From Gammaproteobacteria bacterium (GTDB lineage Bacteria; Pseudomonadota; Gammaproteobacteria; JACCXJ01): a DNA stretch of 64,000 nt. The notes below the pieces were generated by a model, which did not search any database, was not told the DNA's origin, and saw only the letters and a program-made list of their open reading frames with translations. The DNA lies in NCBI GenBank assembly GCA_050740435.1, contig JBOIDL010000001.1:5484-69483 (forward strand), in the 5' to 3' direction. Below are positions 920 to 58,116 of the stretch, in pieces. A program made the position numbers and the translations under genes. Each line of letters opens with the position of its first letter. Within the stretch, counting starts at the first letter, position 1.

Positions 920-1109
920 CCGCTCGAAGATCAACCGCAATCGCGAGCAGGCCCAGATGCGCGAAGCCGCGGAGCGAGTCGCGAGACATATCGGGTAGAT
1001 AGGCAAGCGACGAGCGAGCACGCGAAGACGCGGGGAGCGGCCCGGACGGCCGCGCTTTGAGGAGCGAGGAAAGCAGATGGGCTGCGCAGTAACTTTTGCA
1101 GAGCTTCCC
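920..1109 (+). mobile_element. MITE-like element, family A, longer copy with a 46-bp internal insertion and degenerate left end
   Basis: About 75 nt (951-1023) is near-identical to the reverse complement of 27485-27560. The right end ...AAGCAGATGGGCTGCGCAGTAACTTTTGCAGAGCTTCCC matches the ends of the copy at 27469-27611. It is followed by TAA, then the ATG of the AI-2E gene. Confidence 0.45.
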
Positions 1110-3156: not shown

Positions 3157-4749
3157 CTCTTTCGTCTCATTACTCAGACTCTCTACGGTCTTCGCCGCCA
3201 TGCGCGCGCCGGTATCGAGGAGGATACGGCCGGCCTTCCGGGCCTGCTCTCGCAGGCGGTTCCAGTGATCCTCCCGCTTGAGCTCTCGCAGGCAGCGTAG
3301 ATATTTGACCCGTTGCGCGTGATCGAGCTTGCCGAGGATCGCCGGAATCACTCCTTCTTCGATATTGTATATCTGTTCAGGCAGCGGGTTGACCGCGATC
3401 ACATCGCTCGCATCGATCCCCAGGTCCTCGGCCGTTGCCTCCATGGCGCCTCGGATCGCCTGCTCCTTGGGCCGCTGGGGTTGGGCGATATTGTAGGGCG
3501 GATCCCATTCACGCAAGGGACGGAGCTGATCGACATGGGTCAGGACGCAGAGGAGCGGGGGCGCGATCAGGTCGGGACGGCGCTGAAACAGGGCATTGAT
3601 ATTATCAAGCAGCTGCCGGTCTGCGTGTCGGGCGGCGTTGGTGGCCGAGCACACGAGTAGGATCAGGTCGCTGCGCAAGAACTCGGCCTCTGCTTCATCG
3701 AATCCCTGATCTGCCGTCGGCCCGGCATAACCCGCGCTATCGAGGACGATCATCCGCCCCGTTTCCTGGCTCTCCAATACGTACGAGGTGATCCCGGAGG
3801 TTAGGGGTAGTACATCGGTCATGGCCCGAAGCTCACCGAAGAGGGCATTGATGAGGCTGGATTTACCGGCTTTGACCTGACCCAGCACGAGCACCCGCAA
3901 GGGTTCCTCAGCGGGCAGCTCGCGGCGCTCAAGATCTGTGCGGGAGTATCTAGTTATATATTCAGCCGTTGGCCGATCGCTCAAGGTCAAGGCCCCACTG
4001 TAAAGCTCGATCGCGTAGTAGGCGACCTGCTTCACATAGCTCTGCAATAACCAGCTCTTGATCTCGTCGGCGGGGTATCTCAGGGCCTGGTGCGCGGTCA
4101 GGTCGCGCAGCTCGCGCAGCACCGCTCCCACGGGATTGATGGCCAGGGAACCCAGCCGGTATACGTCGTAGCACTTGCCCGCGAAGCTCGCTAGGCTGTG
4201 CCCGCGCATGAGATCGTGGATGGTCAGCATATGACTGAAGGGGATGTTATCAAGGAGTATTCTCAGATCCTTGCTGACCAGCTCGATGATCATGAGGAAA
4301 TAGGGGATCGCGATCTCGAGCGGTGCATTTTTCGATTCCGGGTGATAATGCCGGGCGACGATCGTGATCGTCTCTCGGCCCAGCTCGATGAGTCTGGCGG
4401 GGTCGTCGAGCGGGTAGTCCGCGAGCGTGAGCTTCTTCGTGATCGCGGTGGCCTTATCCCAGGCGGCGCGATTGCGGTCCGGCCAGTGGGGGTCTGGCTG
4501 CACCTCGGGTTTGTCCGTGAGCGCGACCGTGTGCTTACGGTTCTGCCATACCAGCGCCAACCAAGCCGCCCCACCCAGGCACGCCAGTACCAGCAGCCAC
4601 TGCAGGATCAGCCCCTGTTGCCACAGCCACACGAGTCCCAGCGGCAGGAGGGTGATGGCAGGCAGCACGATCAGCGCAATCGCCACCAGCCAGCGGAGCG
4701 AGAACTTCATCGGTGAGGGCCGGGTGGTCATGACGGTGCGTTGATTCAA
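3151..4749 (-). CDS. Membrane-anchored P-loop GTPase of unknown function (N-terminal TM pair plus central G-domain; DUF2868/DUF3482-type neighbourhood)
   Basis: 532 aa; N-terminal hydrophobic hairpin; Walker A GQVKAGKSSLINALFG, DSAG (G3), THVD (G4-like). The start overlaps the stop of the upstream GTPase gene (ATGA), so likely an operon. Confidence 0.55.
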   Translation of the reverse strand: MNQRTVMTTRPSPMKFSLRWLVAIALIVLPAITLLPLGLVWLWQQGLILQWLLVLACLGGAAWLALVWQNRKHTVALTDKPEVQPDPHWPDRNRAAWDKATAITKKLTLADYPLDDPARLIELGRETITIVARHYHPESKNAPLEIAIPYFLMIIELVSKDLRILLDNIPFSHMLTIHDLMRGHSLASFAGKCYDVYRLGSLAINPVGAVLRELRDLTAHQALRYPADEIKSWLLQSYVKQVAYYAIELYSGALTLSDRPTAEYITRYSRTDLERRELPAEEPLRVLVLGQVKAGKSSLINALFGELRAMTDVLPLTSGITSYVLESQETGRMIVLDSAGYAGPTADQGFDEAEAEFLRSDLILLVCSATNAARHADRQLLDNINALFQRRPDLIAPPLLCVLTHVDQLRPLREWDPPYNIAQPQRPKEQAIRGAMEATAEDLGIDASDVIAVNPLPEQIYNIEEGVIPAILGKLDHAQRVKYLRCLRELKREDHWNRLREQARKAGRILLDTGARMAAKTVESLSNETKEL

Positions 4750-6888: not shown

Positions 6889-7569
6889 TTGTCGATGGAA
6901 AACGCTTGGGTCGCGTTGAGCCTGACACTCAAAGTCGCCGGTTGGGCCACTGCTCTCAACCTGGTCTTTGGTGTGTCCGTCGGTTTTTTGCTGGCGCGCA
7001 AGCGGTTTCCAGGTCGCGACCTGTTGGATGCGCTTCTGACGCTGCCCCTGGTCATGCCTCCCACTGTGCTCGGCTACTACCTGCTCGTGTTACTTGGGCG
7101 TCGCGGACCGATTGGCGGCTGGCTTCAGGAGAACTTCGGCATCAACCTCATTTTTACCTGGCAGGGAGCCGTAATTGCGGCCACCATCGTCGCCTTCCCG
7201 CTGGTTTTCAAGTCGGCGCGGGCGGCGTTTGAAGCCGTTGATCCTCAGTTTGAACAGGCTGCGCGCGTTCTCCGTATCAGCGAGGTCGCGGTTTTTTTTC
7301 GGGTGACTTTGCCCTTGGCATGGCGCGGCATTTTGGCTGGGGCATTGCTCGCCTTCGCCCGGGCGACCGGGGAGTTTGGTGCAACCTTGATGGTGGCAGG
7401 AAGCATTCCCGGGAAAACGCAAACCTTGTCCATCGCGGTTTACGAGGCGGCTCAAGCAGGGCAGGACAACGTTGCGAATTTTCTCGTGCTGGTGACATCG
7501 GTGACTTGCATCACGGTGCTGCTGGCCGCGGGGCGCCTCGCGCCGGGACGAATTGCAGGTCAGCCATGA
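6889..7569 (+). CDS. modB: Molybdate ABC transporter permease
   Basis: 226 aa, ABC permease EAA-type loop (…ARATGEFGATLMVAGSIPG…), 5 TM helices, immediately after modA. Confidence 0.9.
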   Translation: MSMENAWVALSLTLKVAGWATALNLVFGVSVGFLLARKRFPGRDLLDALLTLPLVMPPTVLGYYLLVLLGRRGPIGGWLQENFGINLIFTWQGAVIAATIVAFPLVFKSARAAFEAVDPQFEQAARVLRISEVAVFFRVTLPLAWRGILAGALLAFARATGEFGATLMVAGSIPGKTQTLSIAVYEAAQAGQDNVANFLVLVTSVTCITVLLAAGRLAPGRIAGQP

Positions 7570-25781: not shown

Positions 25782-26435
25782 ATGACTTTAGCAATTTTCG
25801 ATCTTGATAACACGCTCATCGGCGGCGACAGCGACACACTCTGGGGAGAGTTCTTGACCGAGGAAGGTATCGTTCAAAAAGACGACTATGAGCGCCGCCA
25901 TGAACAGTATTACCGAGATTACTTGAACGGTGCGCTGGATATCTTCGCGTTTTTGGGTTTTCAGTTGGAAGTTTTAGCGCAGCATGATGCCGATACGCTG
26001 CGCGCGTGGCGCGGACAATATATCGAACGAAAAATCAAGCCGATCGTGCTTCCCAAAGCGCGAGCGTTATTGCACACGCATCGCGCCAAGGGCGACACGC
26101 TGCTCATCGTCACCGCCACCAATCGATTTCTCACCGAGCCCATCGCCGCATTACTGGACGTCGAGCATCTCATCGCGACCGAGCCTGAGATCATCGGCGG
26201 ACGCTACTCCGGTCGTGTGTGTGGAACGCCGGCATTTGCCGCCGGCAAGGTGGTGCGCTTATCCGACTGGCTGGTTAAACAGGGGACAAGCTATGCCGAG
26301 ACCTGGTTCTACAGCGATTCCCACAATGACTTGCCGCTGCTGCATGCGGTCACATATCCCGTCGCGGTGGATCCGGACGCGACGCTGGCGCAGGCCGCGA
26401 GCATCAATCGCTGGCCGGTGATTAGCCTGCGTTAA
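25782..26435 (+). CDS. HAD-IB family hydrolase
   Basis: 217 aa; motif I FDLDNTL, motif III/IV …YSDSHNDLPLL…; conserved neighbour of rppH in gammaproteobacteria. Confidence 0.75.
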   Translation: MTLAIFDLDNTLIGGDSDTLWGEFLTEEGIVQKDDYERRHEQYYRDYLNGALDIFAFLGFQLEVLAQHDADTLRAWRGQYIERKIKPIVLPKARALLHTHRAKGDTLLIVTATNRFLTEPIAALLDVEHLIATEPEIIGGRYSGRVCGTPAFAAGKVVRLSDWLVKQGTSYAETWFYSDSHNDLPLLHAVTYPVAVDPDATLAQAASINRWPVISLR

Positions 26436-26436
26436 G

Positions 26437-26467
26437 GCGTGCTCGCCACACTTTTGCAGAGCTTTCC
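26437..26467 (+). mobile_element. Solo right-end fragment of MITE family A (…GTGCTCGCCACACTTTTGCAGAGCTTTCC) between the HAD and mdh stops
   Basis: About 30 nt matching the right end of the 27469-27611 copy, followed by TAA. The mdh stop codon (TAG on the minus strand) overlaps its last base. Confidence 0.35.
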
Positions 26468-27450
26468 TAATGGCCTAAAAGCTTCTCGACCGCGTCCCGT
26501 TCTTCTTCCAGTTCCTTGCGGGTGATCTCCATGCGCGCGCGGCTAAACTCATCGATGCCGAGACCCTGGACAATGCTGTAGCCGCCGTCCCGCGTGGTCA
26601 CAGGGAATGAATAGATCAAACCGGGCGCAATGCCATAGCTCCCGTCACTCGCAACCGCCATGCTGGTCCAATCATCCGCCGGGGTTCCCATCACCCAATC
26701 GCGCATGTGCTCGATGGCCGCATTCGCGGCTGATGCCGCGCTCGAGGCGCCGCGCGCGGCGATAACCTCCGCTCCCCGTTTCGCGACCCGAGGAATGAAT
26801 TCATCCGCTAACCAGCGCTGCTCTATCGAGTCCTTGGCCGGCCGGCCGCGAATCAAGGCGTGGCTGATGTCGGGATACTGGGTGGTCGAGTGATTCCCCC
26901 AAATGGCTAGTTTCCTGATTTCCGTGACTTTGCAGCCGGCCTTTTGCGCCAACTGGGCGATGGCCCGATTGTGATCCAAGCGCGTCAGCGCCGAGAAGTT
27001 CGTCGCATTGATGTCCGGAGCGCTGCGCATTGCCGTTAAAGCATTGGTGTTCGCTGGATTGCCGACCACCAATACCTTGACCTCTCGCTGCGCGTGCTCA
27101 TTGAGGGCCCGGCCTTGTATCTGGAAGATCCCCCCGTTCGCGGCGAGTAGATCGCTGCGCTCCATGCCGGGACCACGGGGCCTGGCGCCCACGAGCAAGG
27201 CATAGGCGGTTCCCCGAAACGCGACCTTGAGATCGTCGGTAATGACGACGTCATCGAGAAGCGGAAACGCGCAGTCCATCAGCTCCATCGCGACGCCTTC
27301 CAGCACCTTCAAGGCGGGCGTTATGTCCAGTAACCGCAAGCATACCGGCTGGTTCGGTCCCAGCATCTCTCCGGCGGCGATGCGAAACAGCAATGCGTAA
27401 CCGATCTGGCCGGCGGCCCCAGTGACCGTAATTTGCACGGGTTGCTTCAT
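26467..27450 (-). CDS. mdh: Malate dehydrogenase (NAD-dependent, LDH-like 327-aa type)
   Basis: N-terminal Rossmann [17 protein letters not shown], catalytic …[12 protein letters not shown]…; full-length. Confidence 0.9.
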
Positions 27451-27468
27451 TGGCTCTCTCGCTTTTTA

Positions 27469-27611
27469 GGGAAGCTTACAAAAGTCACTGCGCAGCCCAT
27501 CTGCTTTGTCGCGTGCTCGCTCGTCGCTCGCCTATCTACCTGATATGTCTCGCGACTCGCTCCGCGGCTTCGCGCATCTGGGCTTGCTCGCGACACTTTT
27601 GCAGAGCTTCC
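27469..27611 (-). mobile_element. MITE-like element family A, full copy (about 143 bp) with imperfect terminal inverted repeats GGGAAGCTTACAAAAGT … ACTTTTGCAGAGCTTCC
   Basis: Its ends are inverted repeats of each other, and its core is the reverse complement of 951-1023. It is flanked by TTA on both sides (27466-68 and 27612-14), and the right TTA is the gltA stop codon (TAA, minus strand). Confidence 0.5.
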
Positions 27612-28913
27612 TTATTTTCTTTTTGCGACCGGCACATAGTCCCTGGTTTCGGAACCGATATAGATCTGGCGGGGACGTCCGATGCGGAAATCCGCATCCG
27701 TGATCATCTCCATCCACTGCGCCAGCCATCCGGCGGTCCGCGCTATGGCAAACAACACCGTGTACATACGGGTCGGTATTTCGAGCGCCTTGAGAATGAT
27801 CCCGGAATAAAAGTCCACGTTCGGGTAGAGTTTCCTCTCGATAAAATAGTCATCTTCCAGCGCGATGCGCTCCAGCTCCATGGCGATTTCGAGCATGGGC
27901 CGATGCGCGCCCGCGCCCATGGCGTCGAGGACGGCGTGACACGCCTTGCGGATAATCGCCGCGCGCGGGTCGTAATTTTTGTAGACGCGATGCCCGAATC
28001 CCATCAATCGATACGATCCATCCTTGTCCTTGGCGCGATCGACATACTTGCGTACGTTTTTAATATCCTGGATCTCTTCAAGCATATGCACGACCGCCTC
28101 GTTCGCGCCTCCATGTGCACGCCCCCACAAGGTCGCGATGCCCGCCGCGATACAGGTATAGGGGTTGCTCTCGGTGCTCCCCGCGAGCCGCACCGCGGAG
28201 GTGCTGGCGTTTTGCTCGTGATCGGCGTGCAGGATGAACAGCAGATCCAAGGCGTATACGGCGACCGGATTGGTGACAAAAGGTTGCGAAGGCTGCGCGA
28301 ACATCATCTGCATGAAGTTTTCTATGTACCCCAGGGCGTTGTTGGGATACACAAAAGGCTGGCCGACGCCATACTTGTAACACTTGGAAGCGATGTTCGG
28401 CATCTTCGCCAGAATACGGCGAGCGGTCGCATCGCGGTCACCCTGGTCGTAAATGTCAATCGAATCGTGGTAATACGAAGCCATCGCGCCGATCACGCCG
28501 ACCATGATGGACATCGGATGCGCGTCGTAGCGGTACCCGCCGTAGAATTTTATCAAGTGCTCGTGCACCATGCTGTGCTCTTTGACGGACGAATCGAATT
28601 CCGCCATTTGCCGGGCCGTCGGCAGTTCGCCATAAATCAGCAGGTACGCTACTTCCAGGTAGTGGCTGTGCTCGGCCAATTGCTCAATCGGGTAACCGCG
28701 GTACAACAAGATCCCCTTGTCGCCATCAAGGAAAGTAATGGCGCTACGGCAGCTTGCGGTCGTGACGAACCCGGGGTCCAAGGTAAACATCCCAAGCTCG
28801 CTGTAAAGGCGATTGGTATCGATGACGGCAGGCCCGTAAGTGCCGCGATAGACCGGACATTCGATCGTTTTACCGGTAGTATTGTCCCTAATCGTTACCG
28901 TGTCGGCTGTCAT
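27612..28913 (-). CDS. gltA: Citrate synthase (type II)
   Basis: Conserved citrate synthase motifs (…[14 protein letters not shown]…, …[19 protein letters not shown]…). Start set to the ATG at 28913 ([11 protein letters not shown]), which has an aggaga RBS; the longer ORF to 28985 is unlikely. Confidence 0.9.
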
Positions 28914-29244
28914 CGAACTCTCCTTGGGCCGCGGTCGTGTATTCGCGGTTGCGTTTCCAGGTTTCAACATAGCCTTATACCTCAATACACCCCCTGCGCG
29001 GTAAGCATAACGTTATTTTTCGCGCCGCAGCAAGTAGCGTCTCGGCGCCGCCGTGGCTGGACCGGATCATGGCAGCGGCTAAAACTCTTGGCCCATCCTT
29101 AGCTATTGGGTATTATTGCGGCGCACATTAAGGCTACCGTAATAACCGATCCCATGATCGCTTCGTTACCGTCATCATCGTGCGGCGCGGGCGCGCGGCG
29201 ATTCCCGTGTATGAGGAAACCGCCGCGTTTAATATTGATAAGTC

Positions 29245-44726: not shown

Positions 44727-44759
44727 AACGATAGCAGGCCTCCTTTTACGGTCCGCTGA

Positions 44760-44902
44760 GAGTTTGCGAAAAAACCGTCGCGAGCGAAGGGAGGTCGCGT
44801 TCCGCCGGAGCGCAGGAACCGGAGTGTATGTTGGAATACATGAGGATTCCGAGCACCGCCGGAATGCGAGATCCCGAGTGCAGTAGGTTTTTTCACAAAC
44901 GC
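44760..44902 (+). mobile_element. MITE-like element family B (143 bp) with about 17-bp terminal inverted repeats GAGTTTG(C/T)GAAAAAACC and 3-bp target duplication TGA
   Basis: About 93% identical to the reverse complement of 51492-51634; perfect-ish TIRs; TGA at 44757-59 and 44903-05. Sits between the pckG stop and the small coiled-coil gene start. Confidence 0.65.
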
Positions 44903-44916
44903 TGATGTCCGTCCTG

Positions 44917-50582: not shown

Positions 50583-51491
50583 ATGCAAGTAGAACGCGCG
50601 ACGGTCACGGCGATCGAAACAGCGCCGTGGGCCCGTAACTGGCTTAACTGCTTGCCGCTGTACCTGTTGCCTCACCACGCCTTGTCGCGCTTGATGCTGG
50701 TTGCGACACGCCTGCGTTTTCGACCGTGGAAAGATTGGCAAATTCGGTGGTTTATCCGCCGTTACGGGGTCGATATGGACAGCGTGGCCGAATCCGATCC
50801 GCGCGTCTACCCGGAATTCAATAGCTTCTTTACCCGCGCGCTCCGAGCCGATGCGCGCCCGATCGCGCCCGACCCTTGCTCATTGGCGTGCCCCGTCGAC
50901 GGTAGCGTGTCCCAACTCGGCGATCTCCGAGACGGGTCGTTGCTCCAGGCCAAAGGACAGCACTACAGTGTGTCCGGTCTGCTGGCAAGCATGGAGGCGG
51001 GAGCGTTCTTGGGGGGGCATTTCATCACCTTGTATTTAGCCCCGAGAGACTACCATCGAGTGCACATGCCAGTCACCGGGCGCCTGGTCCGATCGGTTCA
51101 TGTGCCGGGGCGCTTGTTTCCGGTGAAACCCAGCACGGTCCTGGGAATAAACGATCTCTTTAGCCGCAACGAGCGCATCGTTTGCCTGTTCGAAACCCAC
51201 GCAGGCCCGCTTGCGCTCATCATGATAGGCGCCATGTTCGTGGGCGCGATGGACCTTGTGTGGCGCCACGGTGGTGCGATGCACACGGCCGCGCGTCGTA
51301 TCTGCGTCTACGAACAACCCGAATCCTGCCCGGTGATCCTAAATCAGGGCGAGGAGATGGGCCGCTTTAACATGGGATCAACGGTCATCCTGCTGCTCGG
51401 GCCGGGCGCGATCCGCTGGTCGAAAACACTGCAACCCGGTACGCCCGTGACGATGGGGCAATCCATCGGAACCCTCGCCGGCCTGGGCTAA
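50583..51491 (+). CDS. psd: Phosphatidylserine decarboxylase proenzyme
   Basis: 302 aa; PSD motifs (…FFTRALR…, LGST cleavage/pyruvoyl site GSTV in …FNMGSTVILL…). The TAA stop at 51489-91 doubles as the left flank of MITE-B copy 2. Confidence 0.85.
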   Translation: MQVERATVTAIETAPWARNWLNCLPLYLLPHHALSRLMLVATRLRFRPWKDWQIRWFIRRYGVDMDSVAESDPRVYPEFNSFFTRALRADARPIAPDPCSLACPVDGSVSQLGDLRDGSLLQAKGQHYSVSGLLASMEAGAFLGGHFITLYLAPRDYHRVHMPVTGRLVRSVHVPGRLFPVKPSTVLGINDLFSRNERIVCLFETHAGPLALIMIGAMFVGAMDLVWRHGGAMHTAARRICVYEQPESCPVILNQGEEMGRFNMGSTVILLLGPGAIRWSKTLQPGTPVTMGQSIGTLAGLG

Positions 51492-51634
51492 GAGTTTGTG
51501 AAAAAACCTACTGCGCTCGGGATCTCGCGTTCCGGCGGTGCTCGGAATCCTCATGTATTTCAACATACACTGCGGTTCCTGTGCTCCGGCGGAACACGAA
51601 CTCCCTTCGCTCGCGACGGTTTTTCCACAAACTC
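51492..51634 (-). mobile_element. MITE-like element family B, second copy (143 bp), inverted relative to the 44760-44902 copy; 3-bp target duplication TAA
   Basis: TIRs GAGTTTGTGAAAAAACC / GGTTTTTCCACAAACTC; flanked by TAA (51489-91, the psd stop) and TAA (51635-37). The lptF stop codon (TAG, minus strand) spans the junction at 51634-36. Confidence 0.65.
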
Positions 51635-52731
51635 TAAGCCAACGCCTCGCGCCGGAACTGCCGCGCCCACCGCTTGCGCAAGAGCGGATAACCAAGGAGT
51701 GCAAGGATCACAAGGCCTAAGAGCGCATGCACCCACCATAAACCCAGATACACAGGCACGGCGCCCTGCTCGGCCAAGGTCTTCGCGATCCCCAAGAGAT
51801 TGCTGTAAGTGAAATAAATCAAGACCGCGCTCAAGAGCCCGAGGATCCGGTTCTGGTCAGATGCCGCTCGCACCAGCGCCACCGCGAGGAGCGTCAACAG
51901 CACGGTACTGATCGGCATTGCGATTCGCCACTGCAACTCAGCGGCCGCCTCCGGCGTGTTAGCCGACCACAAGCTTGCGGTGCTCGCCGCGCTCGCGCGC
52001 TCGCTCCCGTCCGCCGCCTCACTGCGGTCGATACGCACGCCGTATTTCTCGTACTCGACAATGGAATAATCGAGCCGTCCCGGGGAGCCCATATAGCGGC
52101 GCCCGGCGTAAAAGTTCACATAGCGAGATCCGGTTTTCTGGTCGAGCTCGATTTCCGCTCGGTCAGCGGCAAGCACCCCGAGGTGGCTGTCTTGCCGCCC
52201 TTGCAGGAACACATTGGACATGCTGCGCTTGTCGGGAGACAGCCGCTCCACATAGAGGATGCGGTTACCCTCATTGAAATCCTTGAATTGCCCCGGCGTG
52301 ATCCCGGTCAGGTCGGATTCCGATTTGGCCCGGTTTTCCACCTCAATCAAGCGCGCTTCCGCCCACGGCGCGACCGCGAGCGCGAGGATCGCGACGAGGA
52401 GCGCCACGGCGAAAGCAAGTCTGGCCGCCGTATCGAAAAGAAACCGCGAGCCCAAGCCCAAGCTTGCGATGGCGATAAGCTCGTTGTCGCGCGACAGCCG
52501 GTTCAAGGCGACATAGACGCTAATGTAGTGGCACAAGGGCAGCATCAGTACCAAGGAGTTCGCTATCTTTAAGGCCAGCAGCTCGAAGATCAGTCCGCTG
52601 TCGATCTTTCCGGCGGCAGCCGTCGCCAGGTACTGCGCGAAGCGGCTGCTGGCGTAGGTGAGTAATAGCAGGAGTTGCACGGCCCCGAACCACAATAAGA
52701 TCTCCCGGATGAGGTAGCGGTTTAACAGCAT
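51634..52731 (-). CDS. lptF: LPS export ABC transporter permease LptF (YjgP/YjgQ family)
   Basis: N-terminus MLLNRYLIREIL… (LptF/LptG-type start), 6 TM helices with a large periplasmic loop, divergent from pepA as in E. coli and Pseudomonas. Start trimmed to the ATG at 52729-31; the longer ORF begins at a GTG. Confidence 0.75.
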   Translation of the reverse strand: MLLNRYLIREILLWFGAVQLLLLLTYASSRFAQYLATAAAGKIDSGLIFELLALKIANSLVLMLPLCHYISVYVALNRLSRDNELIAIASLGLGSRFLFDTAARLAFAVALLVAILALAVAPWAEARLIEVENRAKSESDLTGITPGQFKDFNEGNRILYVERLSPDKRSMSNVFLQGRQDSHLGVLAADRAEIELDQKTGSRYVNFYAGRRYMGSPGRLDYSIVEYEKYGVRIDRSEAADGSERASAASTASLWSANTPEAAAELQWRIAMPISTVLLTLLAVALVRAASDQNRILGLLSAVLIYFTYSNLLGIAKTLAEQGAVPVYLGLWWVHALLGLVILALLGYPLLRKRWARQFRREALA

Positions 52732-57944: not shown

Positions 57945-57976
57945 TGCACTGGTGAGGTAACTTTTGCAGAGCTTCC
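57945..57976 (+). mobile_element. Solo right-end fragment of MITE family A (…GGTAACTTTTGCAGAGCTTCC) followed by TTA, between valS and tRNA-Leu
   Basis: About 30-nt match to the right ends of the copies at 1075-1109 and 27580-27611. Confidence 0.3.
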
Positions 57977-58031
57977 TTAGATGCTATCCTGGCCGGCGAT
58001 TCACTTTGGATGCGTGGACTTCTTGATGTCC

Positions 58032-58116
<85 letters not shown>

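Follow-up and report, generated by a model that had tools for sequence, protein, structure and literature searches.

The window analysed here is a 64,000-nucleotide (64-kb) stretch of a gammaproteobacterial genome (GenBank assembly GCA_050740435.1, contig JBOIDL010000001.1, positions 5,484 to 69,483). Short, related repeats adjoin genes at four places in it: the start of a permease gene, the junction of a HAD-type hydrolase ORF with the malate dehydrogenase gene, the spacer between malate dehydrogenase and citrate synthase, and the region between valS and a tRNA gene. The two ends of the repeat are called A and B, and its terminal inverted repeats TIRs. The features at these loci are as follows.

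941-1108, minus strand: long-form copy with one end missing; A-end TIR (1092-1108) and core kept, B-end TIR absent
1026-1069, minus strand: GC-rich 44-nt insert that defines the long-form subfamily, from pairwise alignment with 27470-27611
1109-1112: target site CTAA, its final A doubling as the A of the permease ATG
1112-1114: ATG of the AI-2E/PerM-type permease gene, the start overlapping CTAA
26432-26435: TTAA flank of the B-end remnant, containing the TAA stop (26433-26435) of the HAD-type hydrolase ORF (25782-26435)
26436-26466, plus strand: B-end remnant of 31 nt, made up of the TIR (26450-26466) and 14 subterminal nt
26467-26470: CTAA flank of the B-end remnant, whose complement supplies the TAG stop (26467-26469) of malate dehydrogenase
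26467-27450, minus strand: malate dehydrogenase gene (mdh), convergent with the HAD-type hydrolase ORF
27466-27469: target-site duplication TTAG, left of the full-length copy
27470-27611, plus strand: full-length MITE of 142 bp (consensus, 143 bp), A-end left; nhmmer match to the entire model with E = 1.3e-50
27612-27615: target-site duplication TTAT, one base diverged, whose complement contains the citrate synthase TAA stop
27612-28985, minus strand: citrate synthase gene (gltA), with its stop (27612-27614) in the duplication
57954-57976, minus strand: A-end remnant of about 23 nt, with TIR 57960-57976, between the valS stop and tRNA-Leu
57977-57980: target site TTAG, flanking the A-end remnant

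The 17-mer ACTTTTGCAGAGCTTCC occurs four times in the window, always on the plus strand (1092-1108, 26450-26466 with one mismatch, 27595-27611, and 57960-57976), against a chance expectation of 0.11; none of 100 shuffles gave four or more matches. When the 64-kb window was searched with an HMM of 51 family copies, these four loci and no others were returned. A repeat finder paired 941-1025 with 27509-27593 as inverted repeats (85 nt, 96% complementary) and 1070-1098 with 27479-27507 likewise (29 nt, 97% complementary). The family in the window consists of one full-length copy, one long-form, one-ended copy, and two short, one-ended remnants. No transposase was detected in the 64 kb by tblastn with the candidate partner transposases described below.

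An initial annotation of this DNA had proposed a pair of long, mutually inverted copies and two fragments with a solo end each; the HMM gives just these four loci, and the alignment confirms the inverted pair. The 17-mer search likewise agrees that the right end recurs at four sites. The core had been described as nearly the reverse complement of 951-1023; this holds, over a slightly wider extent (941-1025 plus 1070-1098). Some boundaries moved. Family homology begins at 941 and not at 920, and the copy placed at 27469-27611 does have inverted ends, but position 27469 is the last base of the TTAG duplication. The "solo ends" are indeed two fragments, now refined to remnants of opposite element ends.

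Two further repeats were seen in the window. Another MITE-like pair, unrelated to the first family and with members of about 150 bp, lies at 44755-44907 and 51487-51640; its members are inverted, 93% identical and both intergenic, and have inverted ends of their own, approximately AGAGTTTG(C/T)GAAAAAACC ... GGTTTTTTCACAAAC(G/T)CT. A tandem array at 242-538, in which spacings of 27 and 9 nt alternate to give a 36-nt period, lies within the putative ORF 110-517; translated in that frame, it yields a series of ERIERLVRPERF peptide units.

The full-length copy occupies the gltA-mdh spacer. Its right TIR (27595-27611) is an exact ACTTTTGCAGAGCTTCC, and its left TIR (27470-27485), GGAAGCTTACAAAAGT, is a degenerate 16-nt version of the consensus GGAAGCTCTGCAAAAGT. 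The copy folds as a single long hairpin on both strands (-60 and -64 kcal/mol, z = -4.7). In two relatives represented by metagenome contigs (L102 and L152), whose Mdh is 93 to 94% identical to that of the window, the spacer lacks the element and measures about 20 bp, and the empty site reads CTAA in L102 and ATAA in L152. The sequence of L102 is GAAACTAAAGGGCGAG, whereas the window at the same place reads GAAAATAA[142 bp]CTAAAAAGCGAG. The difference between the two corresponds to the element together with a 4-bp duplication of the tetranucleotide that holds the gltA stop codon.

At the permease start, three relatives (L184, L185, and L187; 89 to 95% protein identity) lack the element, and the empty site of L187 is CCTAATG. 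The window carries the element at the CTAA that overlaps the ATG, and has since lost its distal TIR plus about 16 to 19 bp of upstream flank. Inserts of 44 to 46 nt are found at the position equivalent to 1026-1069 in 187- to 188-bp elements at three other loci (L033, L039, and L057), so the copy at 941-1108 belongs to a recurrent long-form subfamily.

The 31-nt remnant at the HAD/mdh junction is likewise an insertion relative to L102 and L152. The window mdh stops at the TAG provided by the flank of this remnant, with a 1-nt indel just upstream. The protein ends in …EKLLGH in the window, …KKLLAP in L102, and …EKLLAVNAS in L152, each followed by the stop (window 26467-26480 versus 3950-4000). 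The A-end remnant, whose end motif lies 55 nt upstream of tRNA-Leu, is common to the window and L188 (Tig 92% identical) and is unrecognisable in L189; homology among all three restarts exactly at the TTAG beside it. Because the full-length copy has a damaged TIR and an imperfect TTAG/TTAT duplication, the long-form copy lacks a TIR, and the other two loci are short remnants, the window copies look old and are probably immobile.

The family is dispersed far beyond the window. We scanned one genome per species (596 Gb) for the 20-nt pattern ACTTTTGCAGAGCTTYCYTA, for which our own arithmetic predicts about 4 chance matches; at least 100 loci were listed. Most of these are in MAGs labelled Gammaproteobacteria or Chromatiales, and none of the 100 listed genome loci is an orthologue of the window. 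Among the matches listed, SD8037_metabat2.bin.6 (JBOIDF01) has the most MITE loci (at least 22); USCg_Taylor (MUGK01) has at least 12, and further MAGs include MFD06229, SD8032, Frasassi bins, and Lehman Caves bins. When the listed loci were searched by blastn with the window element, at least about 50 full-length copies were recovered, typically 93 to 97% identical to the window copy, and the mean pairwise identity in a 51-copy alignment was 93%. The elements are non-coding, with a standard length of about 143 bp and a long form of 187 to 188 bp. Distances between inverted ends cluster tightly: 39 TIR pairs are exactly 149 bp apart, flanking bases counted. The initial annotation had proposed a genome-wide copy count, in which confinement of the motif to the window loci would have spoken for a regulatory signal; the count instead gave at least 100 loci, with about 50 full-length copies.

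Several matches were set aside. Those in Anaerococcus, Clostridium, and Desulforamulus (L044, L080, L087, and L072) consist of the 20-mer only, with no second TIR or core, and lie under long open reading frames; we treated them as unrelated because their number fits the expected chance matches. Widely spaced TIR pairs at L033, L040, L064, L067, and L091 proved to be neighbouring independent elements and not single large ones. Mis-binning appears to account for matches to the family core in Planctomycetia (L024) and Saccharimonadales (L032) bins, where the contigs concerned are short and of low coverage. In the Gemmatimonadaceae MAG JBGPGH01, three k141 contigs (L030, L031, and L055) share an element end at 121-140 with CTAG directly after it, and all three are also identical over the 60 bases that lead up to this end; here the repeat seems to break the assembly.

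The ends of the element are well defined. In 71 paired elements, the ends are 17-bp TIRs; the element itself extends from GGAAGCTCTGCAAAAGT to ACTTTTGCAGAGCTTCC, and the four bases outside it are duplicated. The 4-bp flanks are identical in 44 of the 71 pairs (TTAG, 20; CTAA, 14; TTAA, 5; CTAG, 5) and conform to YTAR on both sides in 55; identical duplications are absent from 27 pairs, which suggests that many copies are old. Since IS5 makes 4-bp YTAR target duplications (PMC5009759), the duplication points to IS5 as the superfamily.

The same tetranucleotide bears on where copies are found. Among the 142 element sides, 39 (27%) abut an ORF of at least 100 codons whose stop lies inside the duplication, compared with 8% for all YTAR sites at the same loci. 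YTAR contains TAA or TAG on both strands, and copies therefore cluster at stop codons; this stop-codon content would also explain why the motif abuts the gltA, mdh, and HAD stops and the permease ATG in the window. In a genome of 59% GC, many of the YTAR targets at which insertion is tolerated would be stop codons, and insertion there would be nearly harmless, the target duplication regenerating the stop on the gene side.

The initial annotation had also suggested a search for a complete IS bounded by these TIRs, and such elements were found in related MAGs. They are IS5-group insertion sequences, 1158 to 1191 bp long, whose ends are nearly identical to those of the MITE and whose target duplications are TTAA or CTAA. 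The first (L181, 1439-2596) is 1158 bp long, has TTAA on both sides and TIRs GGAACCTCTGCAAAAGT and ACTTGTTCAGAGGTTCC (1 of 17 mismatches to the MITE TIR on the left, about 4 of 17 on the right), and encodes an intact 319-aa transposase, P0016; its contig, JBOIDF010000020, belongs to JBOIDF01, the MAG with at least 22 MITE loci. The second (L060, 3416-4606), from a groundwater gammaproteobacterial MAG, is 1191 bp long and lies between two CTAA sites; its left TIR, at 3416, is exact, its right end, at 4606, reads GCTTTTCAGACCTTCC, and its transposase gene has a 1-nt frameshift. A third relative (L182) starts GGAAACTCTGCAAAAGT and ends in CAGACCTTCC followed directly by TTAG.

The transposase has the Pfam domains DUF772 and DDE_Tnp_1 and scores 320 bits against NCBIfam NF033581 (IS5 family transposase; cutoff, 140). 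In a plasmid collection, an annotated IS5-family element whose transposase is 57.6% identical to it in amino acid sequence has the same architecture, a TTAA duplication, and the TIRs GGCAATGCTGATCAAGG / GGCAATGCTGAACAAGT (GGCAATGCTGA.CAAG-type). Only the 17-nt TIR is common to the MITE and the candidate partner ISs; the core of the MITE is unlike the IS interior. A simple internal deletion of the IS is therefore rejected as the origin of the MITE, which is instead of "type II", its core being unrelated. Two other loci were considered as IS candidates and rejected: a solo TIR (L100) has no transposase beside it but a flavoprotein-like ORF, and a TIR pair 1304 bp apart in a Gallionella MAG (L077) consists of two separate MITEs around ordinary genes.

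The two Gallionella elements (L077, 5790-5972, 183 bp; 6959-7087, 129 bp) are part of a wider observation in Betaproteobacteria, where the same 17-nt ends and YTAR duplications surround unrelated cores. A Burkholderiales MAG (L006, L040, and L048) has the same TIRs around an unrelated core of 122 bp, and cores of 131 to 133 bp occur in other MAGs. The TIR is thus the only determinant shared by these elements, which points to it as the functional one, and the IS clade thus carries several independent, non-autonomous passengers. A 51-bp minimal element at L054 (1255-1305), flanked by CTAA and CTAC, contains little beyond two TIRs back to back (GGAAGCTCTGCAAAAGTGTCGCGAGCGCGCAGTAACTTTTGCAGCGCTTCC) and may be an extreme internal deletion.

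Taken together, these data argue strongly that the repeats are a type II MITE family, that is, non-autonomous elements of about 143 bp that are probably mobilised in trans by an IS5-group transposase. As expected of MITEs, they are non-coding and well below about 500 bp, have TIRs and target duplications, occur in many dispersed copies, and are polymorphic for presence and absence: three window loci out of four (gltA-mdh, HAD-mdh, and the permease start) are unoccupied in close relatives. The assignment to the IS5 group follows from the 4-bp YTAR duplication and from the full-length ISs in related MAGs, which combine matching TIRs with an IS5-type DDE transposase. The suggestion of a MITE-like family made in the initial annotation is in this way borne out by dispersal, YTAR duplications, empty sites, and IS5-group elements with matching ends. 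In the proposed mechanism, an IS5-group DDE transposase (DUF772 plus DDE_Tnp_1), encoded elsewhere in the genome, would bind both TIRs and integrate the element at a YTAR tetranucleotide through 4-nt staggered cuts, and repair would then duplicate YTAR on either side of the element. Presumed side effects in the window would be a hairpin of -60 kcal/mol between the normally adjacent gltA and mdh, a new stop codon for mdh, and a replaced leader for the permease gene.

We considered whether the element has since been domesticated, its transcribed hairpin being kept by selection as a cis-acting mRNA stabiliser, processing site, or attenuator, for example at gltA/mdh. This reading builds on a MITE origin and does not replace it. 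The long hairpin that forms on either strand fits it, as do the location of the element in what is a spacer of about 20 bp in relatives and the existence of insertions common to species-level MAGs (L082/L049, L013/L005, and L001/L018). However, a strong hairpin is expected from the inverted ends and near-palindromic core typical of MITEs, and close relatives manage without the gltA-mdh insert. Orientation relative to the flanking ORF is unbiased (18 versus 13), and the three orthologous copy pairs have diverged to 92 to 97% identity, against 93 to 97% for their flanks. No terminator-like or sigma-70-like promoter site was detected at the three sites scanned (both long copies and the remnant beside tRNA-Leu), and the sole Rfam match at gathering score in the whole window was tRNA-Leu itself (58032-58113). 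None of these results points to selection for a role in the host, and we regard domestication as improbable, although the element may have side effects at the RNA level, for instance on the gltA-mdh transcript. The narrower proposal of partial co-option in a USC-gamma-like lineage, in which hairpins placed at stop codons would tune the expression of neighbours through RNA processing or stability, as perhaps at gltA-mdh, seems to us just as unlikely.

A conserved regulatory signal, such as a protein-binding site or promoter element beside particular genes, is far less probable still and is already contradicted by the data. The motif does adjoin gene starts and stops, lies upstream of tRNA-Leu, and contains a TTGCA-like string within the TIR. 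Yet its loci, at least 100 of them, are beside unrelated genes, target duplications bound the elements, and orthologous sites in close relatives lack them. A sigma-70-like promoter was found at none of the three scanned sites and no GG/GC sigma-54 spacing on inspection, and the gene-adjacent position is explained by the stop codons in YTAR. The idea of a MITE from another superfamily, either of IS630/Tc1-mariner type (Correia-like, with a TA duplication) or of the REP/BIME kind handled by RAYT (IS200/IS605-like), is suggested by the size of about 150 bp, intergenic location, and hairpin potential shared with Correia, ERIC, and REP elements and by the TA in every flank, but it is most unlikely, given that the duplication is the four bases YTAR and not TA, that the TIR starts GGAA as in IS5-group ISs and matches ISs of that group with the same duplications, and that REP elements are palindromes of about 35 nt, not known to have a TIR-plus-duplication structure.

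Under the preferred reading of an IS5-group MITE family, the recurrent 17- to 20-nt motif at gene boundaries, which could be mistaken for a regulatory site in annotation, is explained. The family also flags remodelled gene ends (at the mdh stop, in the gltA-mdh spacer, and in the leader of the permease gene) and draws attention to contig breaks, and to contigs that are probably mis-binned, in MAGs of an uncultured lineage to which the USC-gamma MAG USCg_Taylor belongs. It offers a clean natural example of how, in a GC-rich genome, a preference for YTAR directs insertions to stop codons. Otherwise the family is selfish DNA of an ordinary sort, common among uncultured Gammaproteobacteria from soil and caves, and leaves knowledge of how such elements work unchanged. 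The TIR string GGAAGCTCTGCAAAAGT was absent from the literature searched, and the MITE family and its candidate IS both appear to be undescribed, yet of a familiar kind.

Among known systems, the nearest is the IS5 group. Like the window family, IS5 of Escherichia coli and the plasmid IS5-family relative have TIRs of 16 to 17 bp with GGAA or GGCA at the start. The candidate partner ISs resemble the group in their length of about 1.16 to 1.19 kb and in a single DUF772 plus DDE_Tnp_1 transposase that scores above the NF033581 cutoff, and no IS5-family transposase in the plasmid collection is more than about 58% identical to this one. The window elements differ from such ISs in being non-coding and only 142 to 168 bp long, with nothing but the 17-nt TIR in common. 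Like the window family, IS5 and its group have a 4-bp YTAR duplication (PMC5009759).

IS5-family MITEs are known from Porphyromonas gingivalis (BrickBuilt, MITEPgRS/464, MITE239, and MITE700) and from Neisseria meningitidis (ATR, with ISNme1 as its parent); these are short and non-coding, with TIRs that match resident IS5-family ISs and an unrelated interior (PMC4596501). The window family is like them in its TIR-only kinship to an IS and in its tens of copies per genome, and its TIR has the string TGCAAAA in common with that of ISNme1, GAGACCTTTGCAAAA. It differs in TIR sequence, host phylum, and core. Whereas the duplications of BrickBuilt are irregular (PMC4596501), those of the window family are clean 4-bp YTAR sites. 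Unlike the P. gingivalis and N. meningitidis comparison group, the window family has no internal tandem repeats.

Correia elements of Neisseria and ERIC/IRU elements of Enterobacteria are intergenic, near-palindromic sequences of about 100 to 160 bp that are present in many copies and form hairpins when transcribed. The window family resembles both in size, intergenic location, hairpin, and copy number. Correia elements, however, have 26-bp TIRs of unrelated sequence, and ERIC elements are not known to have a partner transposase. Neither kind has YTAR duplications or the GGAAGCTCTGCAAAAGT end, and since Correia elements duplicate TA where the window family duplicates YTAR, the family is not Correia-like.
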